A stretch of 63,655 nucleotides of DNA, the filler included, from Collodictyon triciliatum (Eukaryota), in the NCBI GenBank assembly GCA_043381765.1. It is 6 parts of 6 records of this genome, joined end to end, with 100 filler letters (N's around TTAATTAATTAA, not from the genome) between each part and the next. Parts side by side here need not be neighbours in the genome. Positions count along the whole stretch, not along the records: positions 30,193 to 42,678 come from JBHJMP010002156.1; 5 more parts are not named here. One strand, given 5' to 3'. This document shows positions 17,476 through 59,406 of the stretch, piece after piece (positions within the stretch are counted from its first letter, which is position 1; every line of letters starts with the position of its first letter). The notes below the pieces were generated by a model. That model ran no database searches, was not told the origin of the DNA, and saw nothing but the letters and a program-made list of their open reading frames with translations. The position numbers and the translations under genes are program-made.

Positions 17476-17575
17476 NNNNNNNNNNNNNNNNNNNNNNNNN
17501 NNNNNNNNNNNNNNNNNNNTTAATTAATTAANNNNNNNNNNNNNNNNNNNNNNNNNNNNNNNNNNNNNNNNNNNN
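17476..17575. other. Artificial contig spacer N44-TTAATTAATTAA-N44 (also 30093-30192, 42679-42778, 55267-55366, 59307-59406)
   Basis: Five identical 100-nt spacers with stops in all six frames. Genes are cut at them and most flanks are microsatellites. Confidence 0.97.
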
Positions 17576-17705: not shown

Positions 17706-24654
<6,949 letters not shown>

Positions 24655-25680: not shown

Positions 25681-26159
25681 GTCTCAAACTGCTGATTCTC
25701 TTCAAAAGTCAGGGGACCAAAAGAAACAGCACTTTGTAGATCTGTTGCCATGCATATCTTGCTACTCGTGGGTCGATGGCTAGAGCTAGTTCTGTCTACT
25801 TTTTTCTTTCCCTTTATTATTTGTTTCAAAGAGCTCGATCCGCCTTTCCCCCCTCCCCCCCCCCCCCCCCCTATTATTCGTTTCAAATAGCTCACTCCGT
25901 TTCATTATTAGTTTGTTGTGCTCACGGGTCAGTGGCAGCCGGCGTCTTGATCGTCAGGGTGTCTCGGTGCATAACCTGTGTTGTAAAGGGATGTGGTAAG
26001 GTGACCCTTTCACTCTGCGTTGGCTGCGTCGGCCTCCTCGGTTTGCGTTCGGTCAGTAGGCATCCTACGGGGCAGGGCTGTGGCGTCGGCATCGCTTCTT
26101 CTCGGGATCCTTCTTTCCTGTTCACTCTTTCTGTTCGTTTTGATTTCTTTGATTTTTTT

Positions 26160-26255
<96 letters not shown>

Positions 26256-26521
26256 CTGGCTCCAGAGTTGGTGGGTTGGGAGAGGGAAAGAACTTTAGTG
26301 TAATATTATTATTTTCCAGAGAGTGTGCCTTTTTCCCTCAGTGCACAATATTTCTCAGCAAAGGAGACTTTATCTTATTCAGTGTTTTTTTTTATTGCTC
26401 CTCTCAACTCTGTCTCTCAGTGCGATCACCACATTTATTCCCATTGCGGGGTCAAAGAAAATCAAAATTTTTGGCCTGGGTTCGAACATCGTCACATTGA
26501 AACAAACGAATAAAGAGACAG

Positions 26522-26638
26522 ACAAACAAACAAACAAACAAACAAACAAACAAACAAACAAACAAACAAACAAACAAACAAACAAACAAACAAACAAACA
26601 AACAAACAAACAAACAAACAAACAAACAAACAAACAAA
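26522..26638. repeat. (CAAA)n microsatellite
   Basis: Direct reading. Confidence 0.95.
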
Positions 26639-26819
26639 TAAAATAAAATAAAATAAAGCCTGCAAATTTATTGTATAGAAGAAAGATTTGTCCGGCTTTG
26701 CTTTTCTTTGCTTCGATAAGATCTTTTCTTTTTTTTCTTTTGTGCCTGCCTGAGATTCAGGCGCGGATGGTTGCATCTGCCCGTGGATGAGACTGTGCTG
26801 GGTGGATGGCCTTCGGGGC

Positions 26820-27841
26820 TTAGTGGTGGTGGTGGCCGCTGTCTTCCGGGGCGTTGGGGTCGCGCTTGAGTACGAGGACTTGACCGCAGAGGGTGCATGT
26901 GAACGGCTTCTCCTTCTCCAGAGTGAACCAGCTGGCCACGGCCTGGTCTTCACCCTCTGTTTCGTTTCGTTTCGTTTCGTTTCGTTTCGTTTAGTTTAGT
27001 TTAGTTTAGTTTAGTTTAGTTTAGTTTAGTTTAGTTTAGTTTCGGCTGTTAATGAGATTTCTCACAATATAGAAGTAGATATAGATAGAGAAGAAGATGG
27101 CTCTGAGACGCAAACGGTTCGGAAAGGTGGGTCATGGTTGGCATGTGAGAGAATAGAGTCCTTTGGTGAGCTCCAGAGGAGAAAGGAAGAAAGAAAAGAA
27201 AAGAAAAGAAAGAGCAGTATATCATCCCATGACACAAGGAGTAGATGATAAATATGTAGAGTGAAGTTGCTTCCGTACTTCCGTCACAGTTTCCGTAGCA
27301 GCCGATGGTGCGCTTGTTGAAGTAAGAGTAGACGATGGCGGGATTCTCCGCGGTGCCAAAATGGCCAGTCAGGGGCTCCATATCGAAACGGTTCTTGCCC
27401 TGGACTTCAGCTTGGATTTCCTCCTTCTCGATGCCCACGGCACCGTCCACGGACGAGGGAATGGGATCTGTGACCTTTGCTACTCGGAGCAAGGATTGAG
27501 ATAGGTATGAAAGTTTCAATAAAAAGATCACAGGGAAGAGGAAAAGAAAATACCACTTAAGAAAAGGATGGGTTGGGTGAACTGGGGAAAAGTGTTTCGT
27601 CAGAATATGCACTTCACAGCAAGTTGCTCTCCAACGAACAGGAAGAACATCATTTTTTTTCCTTTATTCGATTCAAAGTACAGGAAGAATATCATGAAAT
27701 ATATAGTCACAAACCGCGCTCGCTCTGTGAGGCTCCGTGTGTGGAGCCAGAGCCGAAGCGGACGAAGGCTGAGGGAGCGGCAGCCTTTGAGACGAGGGCG
27801 CGGCGAACAGAGGCAGAGAGAACGCTGGAAACGATGGCCAT
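26820..27841 (-). CDS. COX5B: Cytochrome c oxidase subunit 5B, 3 exons
   Basis: Mitochondrial presequence MAIVSSVLSASVRRALVSK, then AVGIEKEE, FGTAENPAIVYSYFNKRTIGCYG and WFTLEKEKPFTCTLCGQVLVL, ending HHHH*. Confidence 0.92.
27654..27679 (-). mobile_element. LINE 3'-tip micro-insertion with a 16-bp TSD, in COX5B intron 1
   Basis: T-run plus CCTTTATTCGATTCAAAGT flanked by ACAGGAAGAA(C/T)ATCAT at 27638-27653 and 27680-27695. Confidence 0.85.
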
Positions 27842-29044: not shown

Positions 29045-29670
29045 NNNNNNNNNNNNNNNNNNNNNNNNNNNNNNNNNNNNNNNNNNNNNNNNNNNNNNNN
29101 NNNNNNNNNNNNNNNNNNNNNNNNNNNNNNNNNNNNNNNNNNNNNNNNNNNNNNNNNNNNNNNNNNNNNNNNNNNNNNNNNNNNNNNNNNNNNNNNNNNN
29201 NNNNNNNNNNNNNNNNNNNNNNNNNNNNNNNNNNNNNNNNNNNNNNNNNNNNNNNNNNNNNNNNNNNNNNNNNNNNNNNNNNNNNNNNNNNNNNNNNNNN
29301 NNNNNNNNNNNNNNNNNNNNNNNNNNNNNNNNNNNNNNNNNNNNNNNNNNNNNNNNNNNNNNNNNNNNNNNNNNNNNNNNNNNNNNNNNNNNNNNNNNNN
29401 NNNNNNNNNNNNNNNNNNNNNNNNNNNNNNNNNNNNNNNNNNNNNNNNNNNNNNNNNNNNNNNNNNNNNNNNNNNNNNNNNNNNNNNNNNNNNNNNNNNN
29501 NNNNNNNNNNNNNNNNNNNNNNNNNNNNNNNNNNNNNNNNNNNNNNNNNNNNNNNNNNNNNNNNNNNNNNNNNNNNNNNNNNNNNNNNNNNNNNNNNNNN
29601 NNNNNNNNNNNNNNNNNNNNNNNNNNNNNNNNNNNNNNNNNNNNNNNNNNNNNNNNNNNNNNNNNNNNNN
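29045..29670. other. Scaffold gap (626 N)
   Basis: Run of N. Confidence 0.99.
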
Positions 29671-30090: not shown

Positions 30091-33000
30091 TTNNNNNNNN
30101 NNNNNNNNNNNNNNNNNNNNNNNNNNNNNNNNNNNNTTAATTAATTAANNNNNNNNNNNNNNNNNNNNNNNNNNNNNNNNNNNNNNNNNNNNAACAATAA
30201 CAACAATAACAACAATAATAACAATAATAACAACAACAACAAGAACAACAAAAAAATACTGATCAACACGAGGACAATCAAACTGAATGACCTTACACGA
30301 AAGCAAATACTAATATTATTAAAAAAACGAAAGGTTTAACCTAGGCAAGTCTTTTACCTTTGTCAGAAAGCTAAAAGAGTTGATCAAGGGTGGGGTAGTA
30401 TATCAAACGCTAGCAAATAACAATTATTATTGAAGGTATACAATAAGGGCAAAAGATGAGTCATTTCAACGAAACTTTTCTGTGATTGGCTCTGACCTTG
30501 CCTTGCATAATCCCTGGCTTATATCATGTTGCTTACCAACCAAAACTCAAGTTTCCAGAAAACTCATTAATATATCTAAATAAAAAAGAATTCAACTATT
30601 CTAATATCATAGCCCAATTTTTTAGGGCCCCTTATCATTACAACAATCACAAGCCAAGGAGAGATAGGACTGTCTTGATTTCGGAGCATCCTTTTGCGGA
30701 GCATTGTTGGCCAGGCATCCACATTACCTTAGCTATCCCTAAATCTTTTTGTTTTTATCAATAAAACTATATACCAACAGTTAGATAAATAATACTAGTT
30801 AATAGCGGATTCAAAGACCATCTCGTGCAGTTTATGACACCTTCCCAGGGGGTGGTGGCGATTGAGTATCTGGTCGCTGTACTGCTCAAATCACTCTCAC
30901 ATTAATGGATATTCCACACACGCATAGTTTAAGTCCGTCTCTCAGGCTTTCCTTCTTTGCTTCCAGGCTGGTTTTTTTCTATTTGCTTTTATCTTCTCAA
31001 ATCGGCATTTTTCATAGGATTTGAGTAATATTGGAGAAAGAAATATCTAATTATTCGTTCATATATTACACCTATACTTACACCTCGTTTATAATTTTAT
31101 TTTTCGATTAAGTAACAATGCTGTCAAAATAATATGCCAGGAAGATAATTATCAGTATTATAGGCTAAGCTCCTTATCCCCTGGTGTGCTTGAGGTATTG
31201 CTGATGAGAAAGGACTAGAAATCAATTGTCGTTGGAAGGCCTTTTAACATAATAGTCGAATTACACTAACATAGGCCACATCGACATATATCTTGATATT
31301 TGCATTTATTTTCCATGTATCCATATAAAAAATAATACCTGAATGACGCATATTGCCTATAGGATAGAAAAATTGGTTGAGTTGAGGCTAAAAAGAGAAA
31401 AAAGTCCACTTTAATGACCGTATCCCTGCGACTGAAGCTGTTCAATTGACAAAATGTAGGTAAAATAAAATTTTTAGCCGTCAGCTTGCCTCTATGAGAA
31501 TAATCAGGTCTCTTTATATTAGCGTGATGTCATATGATACAATTCTTCAAAAATCTAAATTGAATTGACCCAAAATATTAATAATTCACTCGAATACTTT
31601 CCATCAATATAGAAGAAGGATGACTAAATATACATGATCAAAAAGCGAGTAATCTCTTTTATTTTCATGATTTTTAATACCAGATTCTTTTTTGTTCAAT
31701 CTATTCAGCTTCAAAAAACAATTTCCTTGACTAATGTATACCTGGTATTCAACATGGTTAATATCCAACTGATCAACCTCCATAAATTCTGCAACAAAAT
31801 CACGATTGTGTGGACAATAATATTGTGAAATCATTTTGCAGAATTCGAAGAAATCTACCTGAATTTATAAATATACTGGCGACTAAAAGATATCTAATAA
31901 TCTCGAAATCATGAATAAACTAAACAATTCTAATAGCCTTATGATAGTCGTTCATTCAACGGGAAACTTTCGATCACAAATCACTTCAATCAACGGGATT
32001 AATTATGGGAAGATTTATAAGATTTACTACATATATTATGATTTTATGATTCTAAATAATCATATAGTCTAATCATTCGATCTCTTGATAAATTATTGCA
32101 ATTATTATCTAGTGGCACCGATGGAATGGAATAATGCATGCCTTTAAAGAAAACAAGTTGGAAACATATGGTAATTGAATTAAACGTAATTTAAGGTTTT
32201 TCATGGAAAATACCGACCCCCTCCAGAAATATTTTTAATCATCTACTTTGAATCAAATTAAGGAAAAAATCATACACAATTTCGACTATCTAAATAAATT
32301 AATGTTATATCAGGATGGACTCTGACATTAGTTAATTATAGTAGCAGTTCACGAACTTTCAAGCAAAGTCCATACTTTACTGTACTTTATCATACAAGAC
32401 TTTTTTGCTCGCATTTTGGGGTCACATCCAATTCATACTGCAAGTTGACACTTTATTTTTTTAAAAAAGAGCACTAATTTATTTTAAAGCTGAAAATACC
32501 TATAGTTAAAAACATAATATTATATTTCGAAAAACCCATGCTAATTTATTCATCGCGCATCTCACAAAAAAGCGTAGTCATTAAGCCAGATTTCACCAGC
32601 ATTCAGTTATTTGTACAGTATGGTTTTGGTAAAATTCATTATTATGTATTGAGCCTGCTACTTTTACTTCTAATAATAGAAAATGTTTGTAAAAAATATG
32701 CCCCATGTCATAGAAAATTGATAAAATGATTGATATTTAACGATAGAATATCAAGTACGCACAAATTTCTATTATAAATGCATAAAGCCAAAAAAGTAGC
32801 AAATTTATTATCAATTAGACTTCATTCATAATTTTAAGCATTTTTAGGGTAATAGTTCTAGCTGGCTGCTTCAAATACCAGCTGAAAAATCAATAGATTA
32901 TTTAATATACCATCTTTCATAGTATTTATCCATATTCAATCGGAAGCAGTTCAAACTTAAGTCATAGGTGAAGCTCAGAAACAGTTGAAAACTGAAGGAA

Positions 33001-36000
33001 TAACAGACAAATCGACGGGAAAGGGAACCAATTCGATCTACTACATGGAGGAAGGAGAAGGGGAGGTGGATTGGCGGTTCCTAGCTTCCTCAATGCTATA
33101 AAATGAAAGTCTAACATCGTACGGTGGGTTATATTATGTTGTAAGTGTGTTTCTATCCAGCTATTCATCATCAAAAATACAGAAAAATCACAAAACTATT
33201 TGCAAATTTCTGTCATCAAAAGTCAAGGTGTATCCTTTTTCCGATAAGGAGGCTTTATCTCATTTGAAAAAATGACCCATTTACAAAACAAGACGAAAAA
33301 AATATAAAGTTGAATTTAATAATTAAAAATAGTTCACTTGCAAAAAAATTCTAACGATAATAGTATAAAATCTCTAATATTAAGCATCTTCAGATTTTGG
33401 CCATGCTAGATATATTATTAACTTTGTAAAATTAACTCGTATTACATGTATTGTATCAATGCTATAATATTTATAATGAATTTAATTGTCTCAGCTATAC
33501 AATCAATATTTAAGATTAAAAAGATGAATTATCTACCTACATTATCTGCATTCACAAGTCGTTCATCTTTCAATAATCTTATTATGTATCACCTTATGAA
33601 TACTTAATTTACAAAAACTCTTCAAATTACGTATCTATTAGAAACGCTTTGTTTTTTCGGAATCTTGGTATCATTTTATTATAAATTTATTTATTTAATG
33701 GATAGAACTTAATAAAGTGTGATTTAAAAACCCCATCTTATTAACATATGAATTATTATTTCAACCAAATAAAAAAAAATCCATAGCCCCGCTCAAAAAT
33801 AGTTTTCCACTTAATGATACACCACTCCTTGAATGTCATACAATATTTGCATCACAGCTTTAAACCCCCACTCCCAACTATCACCTATCTAGACCTTGTT
33901 CGTTTCTTCAAGTGAAAATGATTTTTAGGTTTCCGCCTAGTAAAAAAAAATTCTTTTTATAATTGACCATTGCTAAATTTTTCTAAATTAGTTTTAATTT
34001 TCTCCCTTAATTATTCAGCTATCGATTCATCTAATCCAACAAACCCTTCCTCCCCTACTGAATCCAAATTAATACGAGGGAATAAAAAACCATATCTGAC
34101 TTTAATTATGCATAGATCCGACTAACCAAGGATTTTCTAGATGGTTTGAGCCCTCTCTTACAATTAAAATGATTCACAATCAGAAATCAAATTCTTTTTT
34201 CATGCAAAGTATTTTCGTATATTTTGGTTGATTTCCAGAGTGATTGGTTCATATTATTTATTATACGTATGCGCAAAGTATGCTATTATCACTATTTTAT
34301 ATTTGATGATTCTGTCATTTTATTCAAATTATTTATATTATCTGTTTCATTCTTACTATTTTGTCAAAATATAGTCGAGTAAGAGTATTTAATATGTCCA
34401 CATCTTAATTTATATATCTCATATTCATCAATTTTTACAAATAATACACTATGGAATTCGTTCTGTCTGTATTAGTAGATATGTAATATCTTTTAATAAC
34501 TAAATTTTGAGCTTTAAATTATTTCTTCAAACGATTTTGATAATAAATTACATAGTATTGATAAGTTTTATTTTTAAATTGAATAGTTTGTTTTACACAA
34601 TAGTCTTGGTTTTATCTTCGTATAAAGACTGATTTTATCAGAGTTCCAAGGAAACTAAAAATTACACAGTTTAAAAATTCTCAATCAAATATAGCATTCA
34701 TATATGGTACATAAATATTTATGATCGAAACAATATATAATCAAATATCTTTCTATTGGTTTAATTATGTTATTTCTGCTTCTGTTTTATTAGCATGAGT
34801 TGTTTTGGTTTAATGAAAATAAAAATGGTAGCTGAAATACGAATATCTCTTAAAAAGAGTTGATTTATTTGAATCCACAATTTAGAGCCTCCTCATAGAG
34901 AAATTTAAGATAATGATAATTAAATAGAATAATACGTGGAAACTTATACTGAAATTGATAGCGGATTATTAGACCTATTATATATAATATGCAACACTCA
35001 CACAAATTATTTTGGTATTTCAATAAGCATTTAATGAAATTTAAAATCTAAACCAGATTTGTCCCAATACAATGCTATAGAGAATATTTTTACGCTTGTT
35101 TCTCCATGGTAATTATTCGGTAAATTCAAGTGAACAGGGTTTCTTGAATCATTGAATTGGTAATGAATTATCTGACAATATGAATATTTTTACAGCTATG
35201 ATGGTTCGGTTGATTATAATGAACTACTCATACTATTAAAAATACAACTTTCCGAATTTTTTAAAATTTACGCTTTATATAATATAAACGTTATTATAAT
35301 CAAAGTCAACAATATTTTTTCGAGTAAGTTTAACATAGAATTTCTTGAAATATCAATACATCATGAATCAAAAGGTAATATATACATTTAATAATATATT
35401 TTAATAAATGAAGTAAATTTTCAGGAGATCTCAATTATTATGTATTGTTCATTTGATTATATTATCGTTAAATATTAATTATTATATGATACATCTGAAG
35501 AAAATTTATTAATATTGCACTTAAAATATTTTAATGCATAATTTCAATTTTTATATTTTTTTTATAAAAACCTGAATTAAATTAGAAAAATGCTTATACA
35601 ATAATTCTTTTCATTATTTCTTCAATATAAAATCCAAGAAATAATTTAAATTGTATTTTTCAATAACCACTTATATTTTAATTATAGTGTAATGCCTTAG
35701 CCCAGTTTATGTCATCCTGAGAAAAATACTCAATATTTGACAGTTTTGATGATAGCCCGTCAATTAAATGAAAATGAATTTTATTTAGACTAAGAAGCTT
35801 ATATAATATGCCTAATGAATGAAAAATCTTAAAATTTTTCTTTATTTTATCAAATTATAAATTACATGAGAAAAATAAAATCAAATACTTGATACATGAT
35901 CTCCTTGATATGATTTTTTCATAATTTGGATATACGCTTAATTTATAGTCACCCATAAAATAACCCGTTTTATCATATTAAATATTTTTACATTCACGTA

Positions 36001-36812
36001 GATTAATTGATAAATAATATAACTTCTTTTTATTTTATTTATAATTAGGTGTGATATAATTTTTGATATTAAAATGCATGTCATTAATTGAGTAAGTGTT
36101 TCAGTGAAATCGTTGGACACTGTGGTTAATATGAATTATTTTGACTGGTAACTTAGATAAACTAAAATTATTTGTTTCAAATTGAAACAATTCGTTATCT
36201 CATCAATTAAGCTCTAATTCAAAGTATTTACTGAGACTAATTTACACGTATTTATTCATTATAAGGTTTATTTGTATGAAGTTTATTTTTTTATTTTTTC
36301 GTACGACATACATTGCTTTACTTTAGTGTAAAAACAAAATTTATCCAGTATTAATTTTTCTTTAATAAATAGCATTCAAATATCGAAATCTACACACTTG
36401 ATTAAAAAATTTACTCAGTTGAAAATAATATCATTGGATGATTGAATTTTTAAAAGTCTATGCTAAAAATATATCAATAAAAGATAATATCATCAATTTA
36501 TTATGAATGAAGACTATGTTGCCCCTTTTAAATGCAAATTCATGAATAAATTTGAGACAGCCGTTAAAATATCAACTAAATAGTAGAAGTATATTTATAC
36601 TATCAATATTTTTATCTTCAGTTTGTGGAATGAATTCATATAACACTTATCAATTATGTAATGCGGTTAGTTTGTATCTATGTATGTCTAAATCAATCTA
36701 TTGAAATCAATTGAAATCGTTCAATGATAGACAACTTAATAATATATTGAGCATAAGATTATATCACTAGAATTGAATTACAACCTTTAAACGCAAATCA
36801 AATTAATTTAGA

Positions 36813-39800
36813 ATGAAATTCAATTCAAAGTCCTTTGCAGCTGTGTTGCTGTCGGGTACGTTGTTAATTGAAAAAAATATTATTATATTATTTTCACTAT
36901 TGACTGCAAAATGCAAAGAATAATAATTAACAAGTTTTTTTTTAGGATTGATACTCCAATCCCAATTGTGCCAAGTTAAAGGGCAAGATGTCCAAGTTTA
37001 CACCATTGGTAGTCATAGCAATAATGTTAACAGTGTTGCTGTTACTCCTGATGGCTCAAAAATTGTTTCTGGAAGCAGTGATTGGTCAGTCAAAATTTGG
37101 AATCTTTCTGATGGAACTTTGATTCGCACATTGACTGGTCATAGTGGTGATGTTTACAGTGTTGCTGTTACTCCTGATGGCTCAAAAATTGTATCTGGAA
37201 GTGATGATAATACAATCAAGATATGGAATCTTTCTGATGGAGCTTTGATTCGCACATTGACTGGTGGTGCTTACAGTGTTGCTGTCACTCCTGATGGCTC
37301 AAAAATTGTTTCTGGAGGTAGTGATTGGTCAGTCAAAATTTGGAATCTTTCTGATGGAACTTTGATTCGCACATTGACTGGTCATAATGGTGATGTTTAC
37401 AGTGTTGCTGTTACTCCTGATGGCTCAAAAATTGTTTCTGGAAGTAAGGATAATACAGTCAAAATTTGGAATCTTTCTGATGGAACTTTGATTCACACAT
37501 TGAATGGCCATGCTAATAGTGTTAGCAGTGTTGCTGTCACTCCTGATGGCTCAAAAATTGTTTCTGGAAGTCAGGATAATACAGTCAAAATTTGGAATCT
37601 TTCTGATGGAACTTTGATTCACACATTGATTGGTCATAGTAGTGATGTTTACAGTGTTGCTGTTACTCCTGATGGCTCAAAAATTATATCCAGTAGTGCT
37701 GACAATACAATCAAAATTTGGAATCTTTCTGATGGAACTTTGATTCGCACATTGAATGGTCATACTAATACTGTTTTGAGTGTTGCTGTCACTCCTGATG
37801 GTTCAAAAATTGCTTCTGCAAGTGGTGATAATACGATCGATATTTGGAATCTATCTGATGGAGCTTTGATTCGAATATTGACTGGACATACTAGTGATGT
37901 TTTAAGTGTTGCTGTTACACCTGATGGTTCTATAGTTGTTTCTGGAAGCGGTGATTGGTCAGTCAAAATTTGGAATCTTTCTGATGGAGCTCTGATTCGC
38001 ACATTGACTGGTCATATTAGTGTTGTTTACAGTGTTGCTGTTACTCCGGATGGCTCAAAAATTGTTTCTGGAAGTGGTGATAATACAATCAAAATTTGGA
38101 ATCTTTCTGATGGAGCTTTGATTCGCACACTGACTGGTCATACCAGTGGTGTTAATAGTGTTGCTGTTACCTCTGATGGTTCAAAAATTGCTTCTGGAAG
38201 TTATGACGGAACAATCAAAATTTGGAATCTTTCTGATGGAGCTCTGATTCGCATATTGACTGGTCATACCACTTATGTTTACAGTGTTACTGTTACACCT
38301 GATGGCTCAAAAATTGTTTCTGGAGGTGGTGATAATACAATCAAAATTTGGAATCTTTCTGATGGAGCTTTGATTCGCACACTGAATGGTCATACCAATA
38401 CTGTTTGGAGTGTTGCTGTTACTCCTGATGGTTCAAAAATTGTTTCTGGAAGTTATGACGGAACAATCAAAATCTGGAATATTTCTGATGGAGCTTTAAT
38501 TCGCACGTTGAGTGGTCATACTACTTATGTTTACAGTGTTACTTTTACACCTGATGGCTCAAAAATTGTTTCAGGAGGTGGAAGTTATGATAATACAATA
38601 AAAATATGGAACCTTTCTGATGGAGCTTTAATTCGCACGTTGAATGGCCATACTACTTATGTTTACAGTGTTACTGTTACACCTGATGGCTCAAAAATTG
38701 TTTCTGGAGGTGGTGATAATACAATCAAAATTTGGAATCTTTCTGATGGAACTTTGATTCGCACATTGAGTGGTCATACGAATATTGTTATCAGTGTTGC
38801 TGTTACTCCTGATGGCTCAAAAATTGTATCTGGTAGTTACGATAGTACAATCAGAATTTGGAATCTTTCTGATGGAGCTTTCATTCTTATATTGACTGGC
38901 CATATCACTAGTGTTATCAGTGTTGCTGTCACTCCTGATGGCTCAAAAATTGTATCTGGTAGTTACGATAATACAGTCAAAATCTGGAATCTTTCTGATG
39001 GAACTTCGATTCGCACATTGACTGGTCATACTGGTTATGTTAATACTGTTACTGTCACTCCTGATGGCTCAAAAATTGTATCTGGAAGTTACGATAATAC
39101 AATCAGAATTTGGAACCTTTCTGATGGAACTTCGATTCACACATTGAATGGTCATACTGGTTATGTTTACAGTGTTGCTATTACTCCTGATGGCTCAAAA
39201 ATTGTTTCTGGGATCCGTGAAGAAATCAAAATATGGAATCTTTCTGATGGAGCTTTGATTCGCACATTGACTGGCCATATCAGTAGTGTTATCAGTGTTG
39301 CTGTCACTCCTGATGGCTCAAAAATTGTATCTGGAAGTGGTGACAAAACGGTCAAAATCTGGAATATTTCTGATGGAAATTTGATTCGCACATTGAATCG
39401 CCATACTGGTGATGTTTACAGTGTTGCTGTTATTCCTGATAGCTCAAAAATTGTATCTGGAAGTAGAGATAAAGCTATAAAAATTTGGAATATTTGTGGG
39501 TACGGATACTTCGATTGGCTCTCTAATAAATGCAAACCATGTCCAGAGGGGGCATACAACAACCCAAACGATCTAAATTCATGTTCTTTGTGTCCTTTTG
39601 GGACATATAACCCAAAAAATGGCTCTATTAGTGAATCTGACTGTCTAAATGCGATGCTGGTTCATTCAATCCTTTTTCAGGACAATCATTCTGTAGAAAA
39701 TGTGTACCTGGTACGTATAACCCGAGCAAGATGTCAAGTTCTCTTTATAATGCTTGTATTAAATGCTTCGCTGGTTCTTATGGCGATAAATTTGGTTTGG

Positions 39801-42328
39801 AATCGTGCAATTTATGTCCTTCAGGAACTTATGGAGTGGATTTGATGGCAACATCGAATTCTTCATGTATTCAATGTGAACCTGGTAGTTACAGTGGGGT
39901 TGAAGGTCAATCGAGATGCCAAGAAAGTAAACCTGGATTTTATGTGCCAGAGAAAGGGGCTTCTATTCCATTAACGTGTCAACAAGGAACCTACTCAAAT
40001 GCAACCAAAGCAACTTTTTGCGAGAAGTGTCCAGCCGGCTCTTACAATCCAAATGTTGCATCATCTAGTTTTAATAGTTGCTTGCCATGTCCATTAGGAA
40101 GATTTTCATCTAAATCAGGGGCATCAACGTGTGAACTTTGTTCAGCTGGTTCTTACAACTCATACCTTGGGCAGGCTAGATGCACAAATTGTACTGATGG
40201 AACATACAATCCTCAATTGGGATCTAGTTCAAATTCATCATGCATAAAATGTCCGGTGGGAACTCATGGTAATGGTGATAGATATGAGTGTTTATCATGT
40301 CCAGCTGGTTCATTCAATAATAAAACTGGCTCATATGGACTATCATCATGTATTTCGTGCCCAAAGGGAGGCTACAGCTCAGAAAGAAGCGCATCATGCA
40401 ACTTATGTCCCACTCGCTCAACAACAACCAAAGAAGCCTCTGATTCAATCAATAATTGCACGTGCTTATATTCTTACACATTATTCAATGGTGCTTGCAC
40501 ATGCCCTCCAGGGCAATTTGAGGATGGAAATAAATGTGTTCCTTGCAGATTAGGTTCATACAAATCAACATACGACACTAATTTCTGCCTCTCATGCGGA
40601 GATAAATTCACGACAGAAAATAATGGCTCGATTACTTCAACCGATTGTGTTTGTAGTACTGGATTTGAACTCAGAAACTCCACTTGCGAGTGCAAACCTG
40701 GATGGTATGAAAAGCAAAAGAACTGCTACGAATGTTCACCAAGCACATACAGTGAATATTTTGGACAAAGCTTTTGCGAAAAATGCCCAATAAATTCATA
40801 CACAGATAAGACAAGCTCAGTATCAATTGAAGAGTGCAAATGTCTTCCATCAACATATCTCGACAACAAGACTAAGCAATGCAAAGATTGTCCAATCGGT
40901 TTTATTTGTGATGGAAGCAGTCAGCCGAGTGTAGCACCTGGATATTGGCAAGCATCAACATCAAACGGAGAATACATTTCTTACAAATGTCTTAATGAAG
41001 ATGCTTGCAACGGAGGTAATAACACATGTGCTGAAGGATATACCGGAGCCTTATGCAGTGTTTGTGAAAAGGGGTTTGGTAAGACCGGTGTTTATTGCAC
41101 TAAATGCCCCAACCAAGGTACGAGTGGGTTTTTAGTATTCCTCAGTATTGTAATACCTTTGATGTTTATTTTGTTCATGATAGAGCAATCAAGACAACCT
41201 ACAACGGAAAACATACAGATACTAAAAACACTTGCATCCCATTTCCAAGTTTTATCATATCTGGCGAACTTTGATGTCGACTGGAGCTCCACTATAATCT
41301 CAATAATGAAAATTCCAGCACTATTTTCATTTTCGTTATCAATAGACACGTATCCAATGGAATGTAGTTTTGAAACGACAATTTATGATAAGGTGTTATA
41401 TTCAATGATGACCCCTTTGATGTTAATAGGACTTGTTTTCTTTATATTTACAGCCAAAATGACGTGGAAACTAAGAACCAATCAAATTAATTGCAGAGAT
41501 ATTACTTTAATCAAAATTAAGGAAGAGTTTATATTTTCCATGCTGGTTATGCTATTTTTTGTTCATTCCACGATTATGTCGTCAATATCAAACATCTTCC
41601 GTTGCGAGAAGTTTGGTGATGAAAGTTACTTGAAGGCTGACATGTCCATAACGTGTGATGATTCAATATACCTCGCTTGGAAAAACGTATCTCTTGTTTA
41701 TGTGATTCTGTATTGTTTTGGTGGCCCGTTTATTCTCGCTGCATACATGTTCTACAAAAGGTCATCACTGATTGATCCAGCGTCAAATACTTACCACTTA
41801 CTCCGATTTTTGGTTGATGGATATACTGAAGAATGCTTTTACTGGGAAATCGTGACTATGATGCAAAAGCTCCTTGTCGTTTTGATAACTATTTTCTTTT
41901 CTTCAGCCTTGCAAATTTACTTCGGACTATGGTTACTTTTAATGACGATTGCATCATCTCTGTATTTCAAGCCATTTATTTCTAACGTACTCAGGAAGTC
42001 ACAACTTTACTCAATTTCAGTCCTTTACTTTACCTTGATGACAAGCCTTCTATTTAGATATACAGACCTTAGTATATTTTCGGAATTTTTTCTTGTGGTA
42101 CTGGTTGTTTTGTTGAACGGAATTATTGCAGCTGTCTCTTTAATGAAAGCTGGGCCTGCTCTGCTGGTATCTTTGTTGGGAAAAATAGAAAGATTTGCCC
42201 ACATTATTTACAAATTTGTGGTAGAATCATCCTTCATTACTTACGTGAAAAATAAATGGAAATTAATGAAAAATAGGAACAAAAATGAAGAATTATTCCG
42301 GTTACGTACTCACATCAACTTAAAATAA
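36813..42328 (+). CDS. Predicted surface receptor of about 1800 aa: signal peptide, 20 WD40 repeats, Cys-rich ephrin-receptor-like/GCC repeats and a multipass TM domain; 1-nt frameshift at about 39647-39649
   Basis: Exon 1 (36813-36855, MKFNSKSFAAVLLSG) and a GT-AG intron (36856-36945) join in frame to ORF 36948. ORFs 36948-39845 and 39731-42328 fuse if one A is added to CTAAATGC, giving DCLKCDAGSFNP. The stalk has CPxGxY repeats and CAEGYTGALCSVC. The membrane domain has about 9-10 hydrophobic segments with HFQV, YLKADMSITC and FYWEIVTMMQK. Confidence 0.88.
37002..39494 (+). repeat. Coding tandem array of 20 WD40 units of about 126 bp with high nucleotide identity
   Basis: Recurrent nucleotide strings such as GTTGCTGTYACTCCTGATGGCTCAAAAATTGT and TGGAATCTTTCTGATGGA occur in nearly every unit. 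Confidence 0.97.
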
Positions 42329-42341
42329 TCACTTCTAATTT

Positions 42342-42678
42342 CTCACTCACTCACTCACTCACTCTCTCACTCTCTCACTCACTCACTCACTCACTCACTC
42401 ACTCACTCACTCACTCACTCTCTCACTCACTCACTCACTCACTCACTCACTCACTCACTCACTCTCTCACTCACTCACTCACTCACTCACTCACTCACTC
42501 ACTCACTCACTCACTCACTCTCTCTCTCACTCTCTCACTCACTCACTCACTCACTCACTCACTCACTCACTCACTCACTCACTCACTCACTCACTCACTC
42601 ACTCACTCACTCTCTCTCTTTCTCACTCACTCACTCTCTCACCCTCGCTCTCTCACTCACTCACTCACTCACTCTCTC
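42342..42678. repeat. (TCAC)n/(TC)n microsatellite directly after the receptor stop codon
   Basis: Direct reading. Confidence 0.95.
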
Positions 42679-43694
42679 NNNNNNNNNNNNNNNNNNNNNN
42701 NNNNNNNNNNNNNNNNNNNNNNTTAATTAATTAANNNNNNNNNNNNNNNNNNNNNNNNNNNNNNNNNNNNNNNNNNNNCTGCAGCCACAGATTCAAAACA
42801 CATTTATTTTGTCGTCGCAACCTGGTGGCGTAGGGACAAGTTTGCTGGGTGCTGCTCCAAACCCATCCAGTGTATCCTCCAATTCTGCTGCTGAATCATC
42901 ATCGCATTCACAAGCATCACGGAAGTCCTTGGAGGCACACGTCTCGTCGATGGTGTTATGATGTCTATGGAAAGGTCAGTTTTTTCCTTTTTCCCTCTTT
43001 CATTTTCGCATCTCCATATTTAAGCAGAGATATGTCCTCTTATTGTATGATAATCTGAGTGGATTTTTCGACAACATTCACATCATGGTATAGCTGCTTC
43101 CTTGAAATACAGTGTTTTTATTTATTTACTTTTTTTTTCTTTTTCTGTTTTGCAATCAATCACAGAAACCGCGATGGGTGCTGGGAATCTCTCTTCCATA
43201 TCGCCCGCCTTTTATTCCCTTTCATACTTCTTTATGCTGTCGAAAGACACAACCATGTTTACAAAATTTGTTTGGTTTATTTCACCCCAACATCTCTCCA
43301 TCTTTGTTTGCTACCTTTGTTTTCTTTCCTTTCTGAACAGCAGACACACACTAATCGTACCTGATGTGATAAAAACTTTTTTTTAAAAAAAAAATTGTAT
43401 TAAAAAAGGAGACAGAAATGGAACAAAGCCGCCTCTACGATTTTAAATTCCCTTTCCTCGCCTGAATGCTTATCGGCGCATCACATGGGCTCAGGGAGGC
43501 GCTTCTGTGGTGGATTTCGTCTGCGCCGCTTCTGGCGATGACACCCAAACCAAAAATGCCTGTTCTGCCCTTCCGCAATATTTTACTGCACACGCTTCAC
43601 TATGCCTAATTTATACTCCACATATGGAGAAGGGAGGAATCGCTTATGCTCCTGAATCTTCATCCACAACGCACAAAGCGAGACGAAAGCCGCG

Positions 43695-44512: not shown

Positions 44513-45499
44513 TCTACCTTAACTCATGTTTTGTTAGCTCCTATGCAATCAAGAGTTGTTCGGTATGGTGCAGAATGGTTGTAGTCTCTCCATCTTGTAA
44601 ATGAGCATGGATTAGTTTGGAATGTGGATTAGGTTGGCGTCAGTAACGCATCTGAAAGAGCAAACGTCTCTGGTCAAGGGCGGTACTGTGCGCGGCTCAC
44701 CGAAGTTATTATCCCCGTGCGCGGCTACAGGAAACGGTAAGTTACCAATTGTGACGGTTCGCTCCAATCTATTAAAAAAAAACTGTCGAAAATCCTTTGC
44801 CATCAGAAGAGCAACGCCGCCCGATATCATCACGCTGCGAGTCGAGGATGAAGCACAGCGCACACGCCAACTCCAAACTGAGATGACGCTTGAAACAGCA
44901 GGAACCGAGCACAGATGCCAAAATCAACCTATTACATGTGGAATTTACAGTATGATGCAGAAATGTATCTCGATTATCAAATTTTATTTTCATAGAAGCG
45001 TAATGTCAACATAATGTATACAATTACTTCTATAATTATACTTAATCTATCTTTCGCACCACCACAGCCCACAATCCTGAATCTGGAAAGAGTTCATTAG
45101 TTTTTTTCAAATTAATAAAATTCGGATTGGCAACAATGTGGTGTCGATACCGCTGTCAATCCAAGATTGCAGAATGATCTCCAAGCCCAAGTCCCTATAT
45201 TAACAGACACGGATCTGAACAGCCAACCGGTCGGCGCGCCAATGACTCTGTGTTACGAGATGCCTCTATTCTTTACGAGAGCACAGGCAACAATATGGCA
45301 TTCAAGATGCGTGACACACTCCGGTCACTGATCTGATCGATCTCGAAATTCAGCTTTGCGTGCCGAGTGGCCAAACAAGGAATCAGACCACAAGAGAGGC
45401 GATCACACAACACACCCTCTGTTTGCACGCCGATCACTCACTCGTCTCTGCCCATCAGGAACCCAGCCCCCAAGGCGGCCAGACAACCAAGCAGCAACA

Positions 45500-48400
45500 A
45501 TGAGCTCGTGGACACCCCAAGAGCAGCACCTGACCGACCTCCTCAATGTCCTGCGCCTGTCCGGCACAGCAGACAGCACCCTTCAGCGCCGCATCCTCCA
45601 GGTCAGTGAACATCTTATTTTACAAAAACCAAGACAAAAAACAAAAAAAGAAACAAAAAAAAAGAAACAAAAAAAAAGAAACAAAAAAAAAAGAAACAAA
45701 AAAAAAAGAAACAAAAAAAGAAACAAAAAAAAGAAACAAAAAAAGAAACAAAAAAAGAAACAAAAAAAGAAACAAAAAAAGAAACAAAAAAAGAAACAAA
45801 AAAGAAACAAAAAAAGAAACAAAAAAAGAAACAAAAAAAAAAAAAAAAAAAAAAAGAAACAAAAAAAGAAACAAAAAAAGAAACAAAAAAAAAAACAAAA
45901 AAAGAAACAAAAAAAGAAACAAAAAAAGAAACAAAAAAAGAAACAAAAAAAGAAACAAAAAAAGAAACAAAAAAAGAAACAAAAAAAGAAACAAAAAAAG
46001 AAACAAAAAGAAACAAAAAGAAACAAAAAAGAAACAAAAAAGAAACAAAAAAGAAACAAAAAAGAAACAAAAAAAAAGAAACAAAAAAAGAAACAAAAAA
46101 AGAAACAAAAAAAAAGAAACAAAAAAAAGAAACAAAAACAAAACAAAAACGAAACACAAATAAGAAAAACAAAAAAAAAATGCAGCACCTGGAGAGCCTC
46201 AACTCCGTCGCAGACTTCAACTGCTACCTGTGCTTCATCCTGTGCGACCTGGAGTCCGAGACGGAGCAGGTGCGGGCCACAGCCGGGCTGCACATGAAAA
46301 ACAACCTGCTGCGCTTCCCGCCGTCGTCGCCGGACATCGCCTTCTTCATCCAAGGCACGCTGCTGCGGCGCCTGCTGCAGAGCCCGCTGCCCAGCAAGAT
46401 CCTGCGCAGCACCGTCTCGACGTGCGTGGCCGCCCTTGCGCAGCTGCGCCCGCGGCTGTCCGACTGGCCCGACCTGATCCCCGGCCTGCTGACAGGCGCA
46501 GCCGCAGACCCCGCCCTGGGCGAGGCCGTCCCGCTCGGCGCCCTCGACACGCTCGACAAGATCTTTGAGGACGCCGCAGACCGCTTCGACGAGCAGCTGT
46601 GGATCAACCACGGCGAGCGCCTCCTCCACTGCATCCTCGCCGCCCTCCACCACCCCCTCCATGACGCCCGCGTCCTCGCCCTCTCCTGCTTCAACCACCT
46701 CATGGCCATGCAGGCCGGCCCGTTCCTCCAAGTCCTCCCCGTCTTTGTCCAGGTTGCCCTTCCTTCTTTCCTTCTTGCCTCAGCTCCTTTTCTCATTATG
46801 TTTTACCGTATCTAACAACGTGCACTGATCTCTGCTCGGATGGCCTTGTTCCCCAGGCTTTGTTCCAGCTTACCACCGACTCGTCTCCTGAGGTGTGCAA
46901 ACGCCTCTGCCATGCGTTTGTCAATGTGTGGGAGTGCCGTGCGGATATTCTGCTGCCCAGTCTGCCTCAGATCATCGAGTACATGTTGGTCTGCTGTCAG
47001 GTGTGTGTTTATCTTTTCTCGTTTCTTTGAATCGAATAAAGGAAAAAATATATCTTTTCTCGTGTTTGTCTTTCATTCTTGGTGTCTTGGCATGTGAAGA
47101 AAAGCACTCGTCCCTCTGTTCTGCATTCCTGTGTGTTTATCTCACTCACCAGATGACTCGAGATTGTGCCCATTGTAAGCTCCTCCCTTAAAAAAACGCA
47201 ACTTGCAAACATAATCTAGGTCGAAGACGAATCTGTTGCCTTGGAGGCGACAGAGTTTTGGCTTTCCATCTCAGAATCTCCCGAGGCACAACCGTATCTT
47301 AGAAATGTCCTCCCAAGGTAATAATCTCGATAGCACCCTACTACACGGAAGTATGATGCTACCACTTATCACTGAAATTCTATCCCAAAACCTAATATTC
47401 ACTTACGGAGAGCATATTGATATGCTTTCATACGCTATTGAATTTATACCACGCAACAAATGGATTCTTTTCCATATCTTTGTCCTCAACATATGAAACA
47501 CCGTACTTATTTCGTTTGCAAACGCTCTCACGCAGTCAAAGACCACAAAAAGAAAAAAAACGAAAGAAAGCGAAAGATATCCAATCCCTAATTTTCCCTG
47601 TTCTCTTAACCTTCCTCTAGGCTAATTCCAATCCTCATGAAGAATATGGTGTACTCTGAGCTGGACATAGCAATCCTCGACGATGAAGACGAGTTCAGCG
47701 GGTCCAAACCTGACCGCGCAGAGGATATTAATCCAACACACTTCCACCACGCCGCGCGATCCCAAGGAGTTGCGCCCGTGGCCAACGAGGAGGAAGACGG
47801 GGATGATGGTGATGAAGAGGAGGATGAGGATGAGGACGGTTACGAGTGGAATCTCCGCAAGTGCTCGGCGTCTGCTCTGGACACCCTTGCGTCCACATTT
47901 GAAAACGAGATCCTCGCAACTCTACTTCCTCTGCTTCAGGTATCATCATCAAGCCAGTCTTTAGTCCGTTTCATTTCACAAATCCCTCGCACTAAACAGG
48001 CCTCCTACTCCAAAAGACAATCAACTAGCTAACGCCCAAATGTTTAGATCTCCTTCGAATCGCAGAAATGGGAAGTTCGTGAGTGTGGCATCCTATCCTT
48101 AGGTGCTATCTCTGAGGGTTGTTTGTCTGGTATCGCCCCGCATCTGGGTCAGCTCTACCCTTTCCTTTTGACCAACCTGAAGCATGAGAAGGTATGTCTT
48201 ATCAACTATATCTATTTTTTTCTTCAGAAGCCTTTATGTGCTGACTTCCATCCTGTTGAATCACTCGCATAATCTAAATCGTAATGTGCCTCTTCGAATC
48301 ACGCTTGCCGATCATGATCAGAAGCTATAGTTCATGGTTCTACTTGCACGCTAAAATTGACATCTACGAACTCATTTCCCAAAAGGCTCTTGTAAGAAGC

Positions 48401-55150: not shown

Positions 55151-55477
55151 TCTGGCTTTATGATGACAAAACTCAAAAAGAAAAAAAAGAAAAAAAAGAA
55201 AAAGAAAAAGAAAAAGAAAAAGAAAAAGAAAAAGAAAAAGAAAAAGAAAAAGAAAAAGAAAAAGAANNNNNNNNNNNNNNNNNNNNNNNNNNNNNNNNNN
55301 NNNNNNNNNNTTAATTAATTAANNNNNNNNNNNNNNNNNNNNNNNNNNNNNNNNNNNNNNNNNNNNTGTATGTATGTATGTATGTATGTATGTATGTATG
55401 TATGTATGTATGTATGTATGTATGTATGTATGTATGTATGTATGTATGTATGTATGTATGTGAGGATTCTAAAAAGC

Positions 55478-55534
<57 letters not shown>

Positions 55535-59306: not shown

Positions 59307-59406
59307 NNNNNNNNNNNNNNNNNNNNNNNNNNNNNNNNNNNNNNNNNNNNTTAATTAATTAANNNNNNNNNNNNNNNNNNNNNNNNNNNNNNNNNNNNNN
59401 NNNNNN

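Follow-up and report, generated by a model that had tools for sequence, protein, structure and literature searches.

A twenty-unit WD40 array heads a predicted membrane-anchored surface protein of Collodictyon triciliatum

Introduction

Internally repetitive WD40 arrays have been described chiefly as sensor ends of STAND and NLR proteins in the cytosol of fungi and bacteria. Here we describe an array of this type in a gene at 36813-42328 (+ strand) of a 63,655-nucleotide stretch of DNA from the protist Collodictyon triciliatum (assembly GCA_043381765.1; the whole stretch is called the window below, and all positions count along it), where it is followed by a cysteine-rich stalk and a multi-pass membrane anchor. 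The HET-E, HET-D and HNWD proteins of Podospora anserina carry tandem 42-residue WD40 units with a conserved scaffold, as does this gene, and their positively selected codons 7, 9, 25 and 27 lie on the propeller's top face in two pairs, each around a conserved codon (8 or 26). Residue combinations there are nearly unit-specific (55 in 69 units; PMC1805685). Among bacterial examples, the WRAP propeller of Nostoc punctiforme (Npun_R6612, 2YMU) has 14 amplified WD40 blades that fold as two seven-bladed propellers (PMC6805158). In one survey of highly repetitive propellers, 84% of the eukaryotic cases came from Ascomycota and Basidiomycota, and the genes encoding such propellers are reported to turn over fast, with frameshifts and in-frame stops (PMC9218822).

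Other parts of the predicted protein recall different groups of membrane proteins. By analogy, the CRINKLY4 receptor kinases of plants are a precedent for an extracellular propeller on a cysteine-rich stalk: their ectodomain is described as having a WD40-type propeller at the N-terminus and a cysteine-rich domain after it (bioRxiv 10.1101/2020.08.10.245050). They differ in that they have just one propeller and one membrane helix, and a kinase in the cytoplasm. Eph receptor tyrosine kinases have only the cysteine-rich Ephrin_rec_like repeat in common with the gene, in which Pfam detects neither their ephrin-binding domain nor their cytoplasmic kinase. The "TRP" family PF06011, to which the membrane anchor appears to be distantly related, includes Pkd2, Trp663 and Trp1322 of Schizosaccharomyces pombe and the Flc proteins of yeast. 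Pkd2 is described as consisting of a signal peptide, an extracellular domain, a nine-helix membrane domain and a cytosolic tail (bioRxiv 10.1101/2022.08.11.503631) and is reported to be calcium-permeable under membrane stretch (PMC9727806). The same layout is predicted here from sequence, but the ectodomain of Pkd2 is a small, Ig-like, lipid-binding domain, whereas that of the Collodictyon protein would comprise ca. 1,400 residues of WD40 units and cysteine repeats.

Results and discussion

A two-exon gene combines a WD40 array, a cysteine-rich stalk and a membrane anchor

With reasonable though limited confidence, we read 36813-42328 as one two-exon gene of a low-GC, probably freshwater eukaryote whose product would be a WD40-headed surface protein of ca. 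1,800 residues in a family with exchangeable ectodomains. The order of the domains, the repeat structure, the place of the variation between the units and the homology of the anchor are direct observations from which this reading starts. Two long open reading frames (ORFs) cover most of the gene on the + strand, one at 36927-39845 (frame 3, P0001) and the other at 39641-42328 (frame 2, P0002), and they overlap at 39641-39845. Since P0001 has no methionine before or within the WD40 array, a start exon is required upstream. As the preliminary description of this DNA had proposed, a small exon that meets this need lies at 36813-36855 (+): its 43 nucleotides open with the ATG at 36813 and comprise 14 codons, for a basic n-region and the first residues of a hydrophobic core, plus the first base of a glycine codon that the intron splits. 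It is followed by a phase-1 intron of 90 nucleotides at 36856-36945 (GTACGT...TTTTTTTTTAG) with GT-AG ends and a G+C content of 19%, compared to ca. 38% for the coding parts. The frame is kept in exon 2, whose first part (36946-37001) encodes the end of the hydrophobic core, the residues Q-S-Q-L-C-Q-V-K-G and a six-residue linker, so that 33 residues precede WD40 unit 1, i.e., those of exon 1, the split glycine codon and 18 from exon 2. The features fit a putative signal peptide, for which V-K-G at -3 to -1 would be the cleavage site.

Four first exons that run in phase from an ATG to a GT donor are the only ones available to the acceptor at 36945 within 1.9 kb (35000-36940); the N-terminus is hydrophobic with two of them, 36813/36856 and 36276/36301. 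The second of these, at 36276-36300, consists of an ATG and 8 codons with the donor GTACGA and would need an intron of 645 nucleotides; it sits in T-rich low-complexity DNA and may be a chance occurrence. Because exon 2 itself starts with the end of the hydrophobic core, any usable first exon would give a start resembling a signal peptide. A hydrophobic N-terminal core is also found in 45 of the 113 long anchor-family relatives (see below) that start with methionine.

The array itself occupies 37002-39515 (+), where we delimited twenty tandem WD40 units. Pfam reports 20 WD40 stretches (PF00400, E 6.5e-222), and Tandem Repeats Finder reports 19.7 copies of a 126-nucleotide period at 37024-39495 with 83% matches. 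Seventeen units are 42 residues long, and the others differ by in-frame changes (unit 3 with 39, unit 13 with 44 and unit 18 with 41 residues). The count of twenty in the preliminary description thus stands, but to call the units nearly identical was an overstatement: averaged over all pairs, they share 82.5% of their nucleotides and 73% of their amino acids. Divergence is greatest in the first and last units (67-88% to the rest). This internal symmetry of 73% exceeds the 60% cut-off for "highly repetitive" propellers in PMC9218822 and is lower than that of WRAP or HNWD. An AlphaFold2 model of the array has four strands per unit at a mean predicted local distance difference test score (pLDDT) of 82.8, with three blocks of high confidence set apart by dips near residues 270-350 and 570-650, and suggests three propellers of 7+7+6 blades. 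Its best structural match in the PDB is the WRAP propeller 2YMU (E 9.7e-55, 47% identity over 593 columns). WRAP differs in sitting on a cytosolic STAND ATPase and in having almost identical blades, whereas the array described here belongs to a non-fungal protist and is apparently extracellular.

The last blade passes directly into a cysteine-rich stalk of Ephrin_rec_like repeats at 39516-40984 (+; PF07699, nine stretches, E 9.8e-50), without any membrane segment between array and stalk. A regular expression for the CxxC..GxY motif finds at least 16 copies, and the first 500 residues of P0002 contain 55 cysteines. The stalk is followed by a cysteine-containing juxtamembrane domain, DUF7630 (PF24633), at 40985-41107 (+), which scores 28.8 bits against a cut-off of 27 in the 455-residue C-terminal piece and 26.9 bits on P0002 as a whole, and which is matched in 13 of 24 aligned anchor relatives. 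Hydropathy and AlphaFold2 then place a multi-pass membrane module with ca. nine crossings at 41114-42226 (+), so the cysteine-rich repeats and multipass domain of the earlier account are both there. The protein ends in a helix rich in lysine and arginine, presumed to be a cytosolic tail (42230-42328, +, with the TAA stop codon at 42326-42328). The AlphaFold2 model of the anchor, based on 24 aligned sequences, reaches a pLDDT of 86.1 and a predicted TM score of 0.81 with ten helices of more than 15 residues and a beta hairpin; two cysteines of the hairpin-bearing loop, C215 and C232, are conserved in every aligned sequence. From this model we infer nine crossings with the N-terminus outside and the C-terminus inside, which would place the invariant cysteine pair outside and the basic loops and the lysine-rich tail inside the cell.

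The units differ at the positions under selection in HET-E

Across the 20 units, the alignment columns of highest entropy are 8, 28, 10, 7, 30, 3 and 6. The variable residues are thus the three after G-H, the one after the next V, and both flanks of the D in S-G-x-D-x, which is where the earlier account had located the variation. Amino acid identity among units is 84% on the scaffold versus 27% at the eight variable columns. Two pairs stand out, columns 8 and 10 around V9 and columns 28 and 30 around D29, and the four-residue combinations at these pairs are nearly unit-specific as in Podospora, with 19 distinct ones in the 20 units. In agreement with the comparison drawn before, they correspond to the codon pairs 7/9 and 25/27 of HET-E, at an identical spacing of 18 residues; the assignment of these pairs to the top face, in the d-a loop and the b-c turn, is taken from PMC1805685.

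At these codons there is sequence evidence for a ratio of non-synonymous to synonymous substitution rates (dN/dS) above 1. By the Nei-Gojobori method, all unit pairs together give dS ~0.29 and a dN/dS of 0.28 on the scaffold, which speaks for long-term constraint, compared to 1.9-2.5 at the variable codons, these sites having been picked post hoc from the same data. When substitutions are counted by parsimony on a tree against the array-wide synonymous rate, columns 3, 7, 8, 10 and 28 lie above neutral expectation, but only column 8 (p 3e-4, site omega 2.8) and column 28 (p 7e-5, site omega 3.1) survive correction for 42 tests. Similarly, the 11 unit pairs that are at least 90% identical differ by 44 non-synonymous and 1 synonymous change at the variable codons, compared to 19 and 33 on the scaffold. 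Units and unit pairs are not independent in any of these counts, and gene conversion can inflate those made by parsimony. The dN/dS comparison across units that the preliminary description had suggested thus comes out above 1 where it had expected it.

Several differences from HET-E and HNWD stand beside these likenesses. The units of the Collodictyon gene are more diverged, as the value of dS indicates, and the gene is known from one assembly only, with no known incompatibility partner. More fundamentally, the Podospora proteins carry HET and NACHT domains, whereas the array described here is preceded by a start resembling a signal peptide and followed by the stalk and membrane anchor. Pfam finds no NACHT or NB-ARC NTPase domain, and only the 33 residues mentioned above precede unit 1. 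By its domain content the gene product is not an NLR, and in this respect the idea of an NLR-style sensor is not supported.

Homologous WD40 arrays occur in STAND proteins and in apparently secreted bacterial proteins

Two kinds of protein make up the 240 best WD40 homologues: STAND NTPases, and bacterial proteins with N-termini resembling signal peptides. Among the former are fungal proteins named HET-E-1 by their source, cyanobacterial nSTAND/NACHT proteins and an NB-ARC protein of Reticulomyxa filosa, which is the best eukaryotic match of the WD40 array (54%). By a crude hydropathy rule, 73 of the 223 homologues that start with methionine have a hydrophobic N-terminal core. Four bacterial proteins from metagenomes (P0244, P0246, P0304 and P0396) are particularly similar, with 13-20 highly similar WD40 units, consensus units that are 64-71% identical to that of the gene, the stretch W-x-[VL]-S-D-G-x-L-[VI]-R-T-L-T-G-H-T in common and the same variable positions. 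P0246, P0304 and P0396 have a start resembling a signal peptide, and a non-WD repeat region follows the array in P0244, P0304 and P0396. Such proteins apparently form a sizeable class of secreted repetitive WD40 arrays. They differ from the gene described here in being prokaryotic and in lacking the Ephrin_rec_like stalk and multi-pass anchor, neither of which occurs in any of the 240 homologues. Given the N-termini of these proteins, WD40 arrays of this type outside the cell would not be new in bacteria.

The anchor belongs to a large family with exchangeable heads

Searched exhaustively with HMMER, the 455 C-terminal residues match 6,621 cluster representatives at E<=0.001, of which 53 reach E<=1e-30. 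The match always lies at the C-terminal end, in proteins of up to 6,588 residues. The best one is a 293-residue fragment with 57% identity, the next ones share ca. 30-33%, and the best full-length matches have E-values of 1.6e-60 to 1e-43 over ca. 385 residues. Rigifila ramosa or Mantamonas plastica is the source of 10 of the 20 anchor relatives that we looked up, and relatives from these organisms (e.g., P0009, P0011 and P0017; anchor E-values 1.6e-60 to 1e-43 at ca. 30-33% identity) combine DUF7630, the membrane module and Ephrin_rec_like repeats just as the Collodictyon gene does. Pfam scans of five relatives detected TIG, RCC1, FG-GAP, LRR and Ephrin_rec_like domains ahead of DUF7630. Such varied heads on a shared C-terminal module point to a family with a fixed chassis and exchangeable heads, whose plan would be a signal peptide, an exchangeable ectodomain head, an Ephrin_rec_like stalk, DUF7630 and a membrane module of ca. 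nine helices. Some of the Rigifila and Mantamonas relatives bear another beta-propeller as their head, RCC1, but WD40 units are absent from all 159 anchor relatives examined, for which the best 150 of the 6,621 matches were visible.

The gene is thus a new head on a known, uncharacterised chassis. This splits the earlier claim of an unfamiliar architecture, which holds for the WD40 head among the relatives examined but not for the C-terminal chassis shared by thousands of proteins. Among the papers searched, we found none on DUF7630 and, going by titles and the openings of abstracts, none on this architecture under Ephrin_rec_like or PF07699. The gene draws attention to a very large and barely described eukaryotic family whose anchor fold has no solved relative.

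The family setting also bears on topology. The disulfide-rich stalk and the TIG, FG-GAP and Ephrin_rec_like ectodomains of its relatives argue that the WD40 array lies outside the cell, a placement that we regard as well supported by inference and that agrees with the earlier suggestion. If it holds, the array would show for a eukaryote that a fast-evolving binding module also serves recognition at the cell surface. A further feature of the blades would fit, since the W-D dipeptide typical of the blade end is replaced by W-N followed by [LI]-S, which creates an N-x-S sequon in 19 of the 20 units (compared to 165 of 4,919 blade ends in the homologues); these sequons are consistent with a secreted protein. 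The lack of cysteines in the array, in turn, was rejected as a sign of secretion, as 58 of the 240 homologues also have cysteine-free stretches of at least 840 residues.

Alternative readings of the locus

Several observations count against a surface protein with a diversified binding head, including the post hoc choice of sites and the dependence among units noted above, and we set them out here along with the alternatives that they favour. Variation at the top face could first of all reflect relaxed constraint in an extracellular but ordinary adhesive or spacer module without any role in recognition, which we consider rather unlikely, if the most serious of the alternatives. When 4,292 units from the 240 best homologues are aligned to the unit profile, the most variable columns are 26, 8, 10, 7, 28, 3 and 6 in the numbering of the hidden Markov model (HMM), i.e., the same positions. 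In 180 of the 240 arrays, the six most variable columns include four or more of the six target columns, and 33 of the 240 reach an internal identity of at least 0.73. Consequently, the pattern of variation is a property of the class and not of this gene, and relaxed constraint on surface loops explains much of it. The adhesion-type heads TIG, FG-GAP and LRR elsewhere in the family would suit a spacer as well. However, relaxation on its own predicts a ratio near neutrality and not above it, whereas columns 8 and 28 exceed neutral expectation and non-synonymous changes prevail by 44 to 1 at the variable codons of the closest pairs.

A second alternative, which we regard as unlikely, is a pseudogene that lost its function only recently. 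In the assembly, a shift of one base from frame 3 to frame 2 interrupts the reading frame at 39641-39652 (+), at an AAA run inside a cysteine repeat, as the preliminary description had recognised in calling for a frame correction. If the deletion were real, the signal peptide, the array and two cysteine repeats would be secreted as a soluble protein, or there would be no product at all, and the reported fast turnover of repetitive propeller genes through frameshifts and stops (PMC9218822) makes such a fate conceivable. No read or contig of four runs compared covers 39520-39895 independently, and an exact 23-mer beside the break has no match in the metagenome contigs. On the other hand, the cysteine-repeat pattern carries on exactly across the break once the AAA run is given one more base, neither flanking frame meets a stop codon over its 2.7 kb (894 codons downstream), and the scaffold of the array is under the constraint described above. 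Runs of A are a typical place for sequencing indels. With both frames open over such a length, the simplest explanations of the break, between which the choice lies, are a homopolymer error in sequencing and a mutation of very recent date. A short intron was rejected as the explanation: 59 GT-AG candidates would restore the frame (including one of 50 nucleotides at 39631-39680), all with a coding-like G+C fraction of 0.36-0.52 compared to 0.19 in the real intron, and this composition together with the regular cysteine repeat encoded there in the two frames makes an intron unlikely.

Independent sequence data speak, weakly, against a pseudogene and for an expressed surface protein. Of the sequencing runs compared, five share 5-9% of the sampled words and none half of the stretch, and four gave only short contigs. 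A freshwater metatranscriptome contains contigs that agree without any difference with three stretches downstream of the frame break (40820-40970, 41263-41429 and 41994-42159). This is weak evidence for transcription because DNA can occur in such a library, but it indicates that the source organism or a near relative lives in fresh water. Some run matches inside the array are from WD40 genes of other organisms, with 90-95% likeness and unlike continuations.

The third alternative is an assembly chimera in which a WD40 array from another gene or organism has been joined to a stalk-and-anchor gene. Such an error is conceivable in a fragmented assembly, here seen as six contigs, and no contig in the four runs compared bridges the junction between array and stalk at 39495-39520. 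Moreover, the array has a codon usage of its own: T makes up 60% of third codon positions, versus 33-37% elsewhere in the gene, and relative synonymous codon usage correlates at only 0.33 with that outside the array. This bias may be a founder-unit effect of amplification or the trace of a different origin of the array. We nevertheless consider a chimera very improbable. The ORF stays in frame through both junctions, and the 5' junction is bridged by a DNA contig from run X3 (subsurface) that spans 36887-37038 in unspliced form, i.e., the intron and the start of exon 2 into WD40 unit 1, with 2 differences and 1 gap. In addition, it is the two end units that have diverged most, which suits an old array whose ends are genuine, and the G+C content of the array (37.5%) lies within the range of the remaining gene (35-40%).

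Finally, a cytosolic array with an unused first exon and no signal peptide, for which one could cite the lack of RNA contigs over the exon 1/exon 2 junction in the runs compared, is hardly credible given the 55-cysteine stalk without any preceding membrane segment, the TIG and FG-GAP domains in the same position in relatives, and the hydrophobic N-terminus that both usable first exons give to the hydrophobic core end opening exon 2. The blade-end sequons carry less weight than their number suggests in this context: they are one amplified event, and 11 of the 14 blade ends of the bacterial homologue P0304 have the same N-x-S sequon.

For a WD40-headed surface protein as a distinct type, it also counts as a gap that no orthologue or paralogue with the same architecture turned up among the 159 anchor relatives, the 240 WD40 homologues or the metagenome contigs, where a scan with P0002 gave 54 pattern matches but no relative. 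The paralogues envisaged before, with signal peptide, WD40 units, ephrin-receptor-like repeats and several membrane segments, are thus missing from these sets.

A possible mechanism and a possible link to ion channels

If the gene encodes a WD40-headed surface protein, its array would face outward, and one or more external ligands could bind to the blades at their top faces, where the combination of residues differs from blade to blade. Unit duplication together with selection at the top-face codons would have diversified the blades. Binding might be passed on to the membrane module, or the module might merely anchor the array.

The module may itself be an ion channel, as Pkd2 is. A match to PF06011 at E<=0.1 is found in 7 of the 24 aligned anchor relatives, one of them above the cut-off (P0126, 32.4 versus 28.5 bits), and PF06011 occurs on 11-15% of the members among the Atlas neighbours of the anchor. 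The anchor thus appears to be distantly related to the fungal Pkd2/Flc family. However, the anchor of the gene itself has no match to PF06011 at E<=0.1, its model has no PDB match at E<=0.001 by Foldseek (the best has E 0.05 and a TM score of 0.15), and an HMM search of the PDB gave nothing significant, so any talk of a channel rests on distant homology. Should the anchor indeed be a channel, protists would have in this family a modular set of ligand- or contact-gated channels.

Non-self recognition as the purpose of the array is speculation. In its most far-reaching form, it would mean that a diversifying WD40 sensor of the NLR type was relocated to the cell surface of a protist and wired to a nine-helix channel like Pkd2 or Flc, such that contact with a specific external partner would be read directly as an ion flux. 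We judge this improbable. If true, it would amount to an extracellular counterpart of HET-E allorecognition in fungi, coupled to a channel, with, e.g., conspecific cells, prey or pathogens as partners.

Genomic setting

The contig with the gene (JBHJMP010002156.1) covers 30193-42678 of the window, which is composed of six contigs split by N runs with ttaattaattaa linkers of the form N..TTAATTAATTAA..N. These runs lie at 17476-17575, 29045-29670, 30093-30192, 42679-42778, 55267-55366 and 59307-59406, including one internal gap of 626 N. The 6.6 kb upstream of the gene (30193-36800) have a G+C content of 24-32% and no stop-to-stop ORF of more than 92 residues, and no other gene was recognised on the contig. 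An Rfam scan of the whole window gave no match.

G+C content ranges over ca. 24-38% on the gene's contig compared to 40-50% on the next one. With this difference, neighbouring genes in the window need not be linked and need not even belong to one organism. Another contig holds an open frame of 1,171 residues at 21139-24654 (+, 43% G+C) with nine Pfam WD40 repeats of a different and less repetitive consensus; it has neither stalk nor anchor and resembles a cytosolic WD40 protein.

Long microsatellites and low-complexity runs are common inside contigs and at their ends (42342-42678, 45332-46800, 25740-26995 and 55367-55500) and comprise (CTCA)n, lysine-rich repeats of the AAG/AAC type, T runs, TTTG-like sequences and TATA/CTCT repeats. 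They are probably the cause of the fragmentation of the assembly. One of them, a (CTCA)n microsatellite of 84.8 copies at 42342-42678, lies just outside the gene and reaches the end of its contig.

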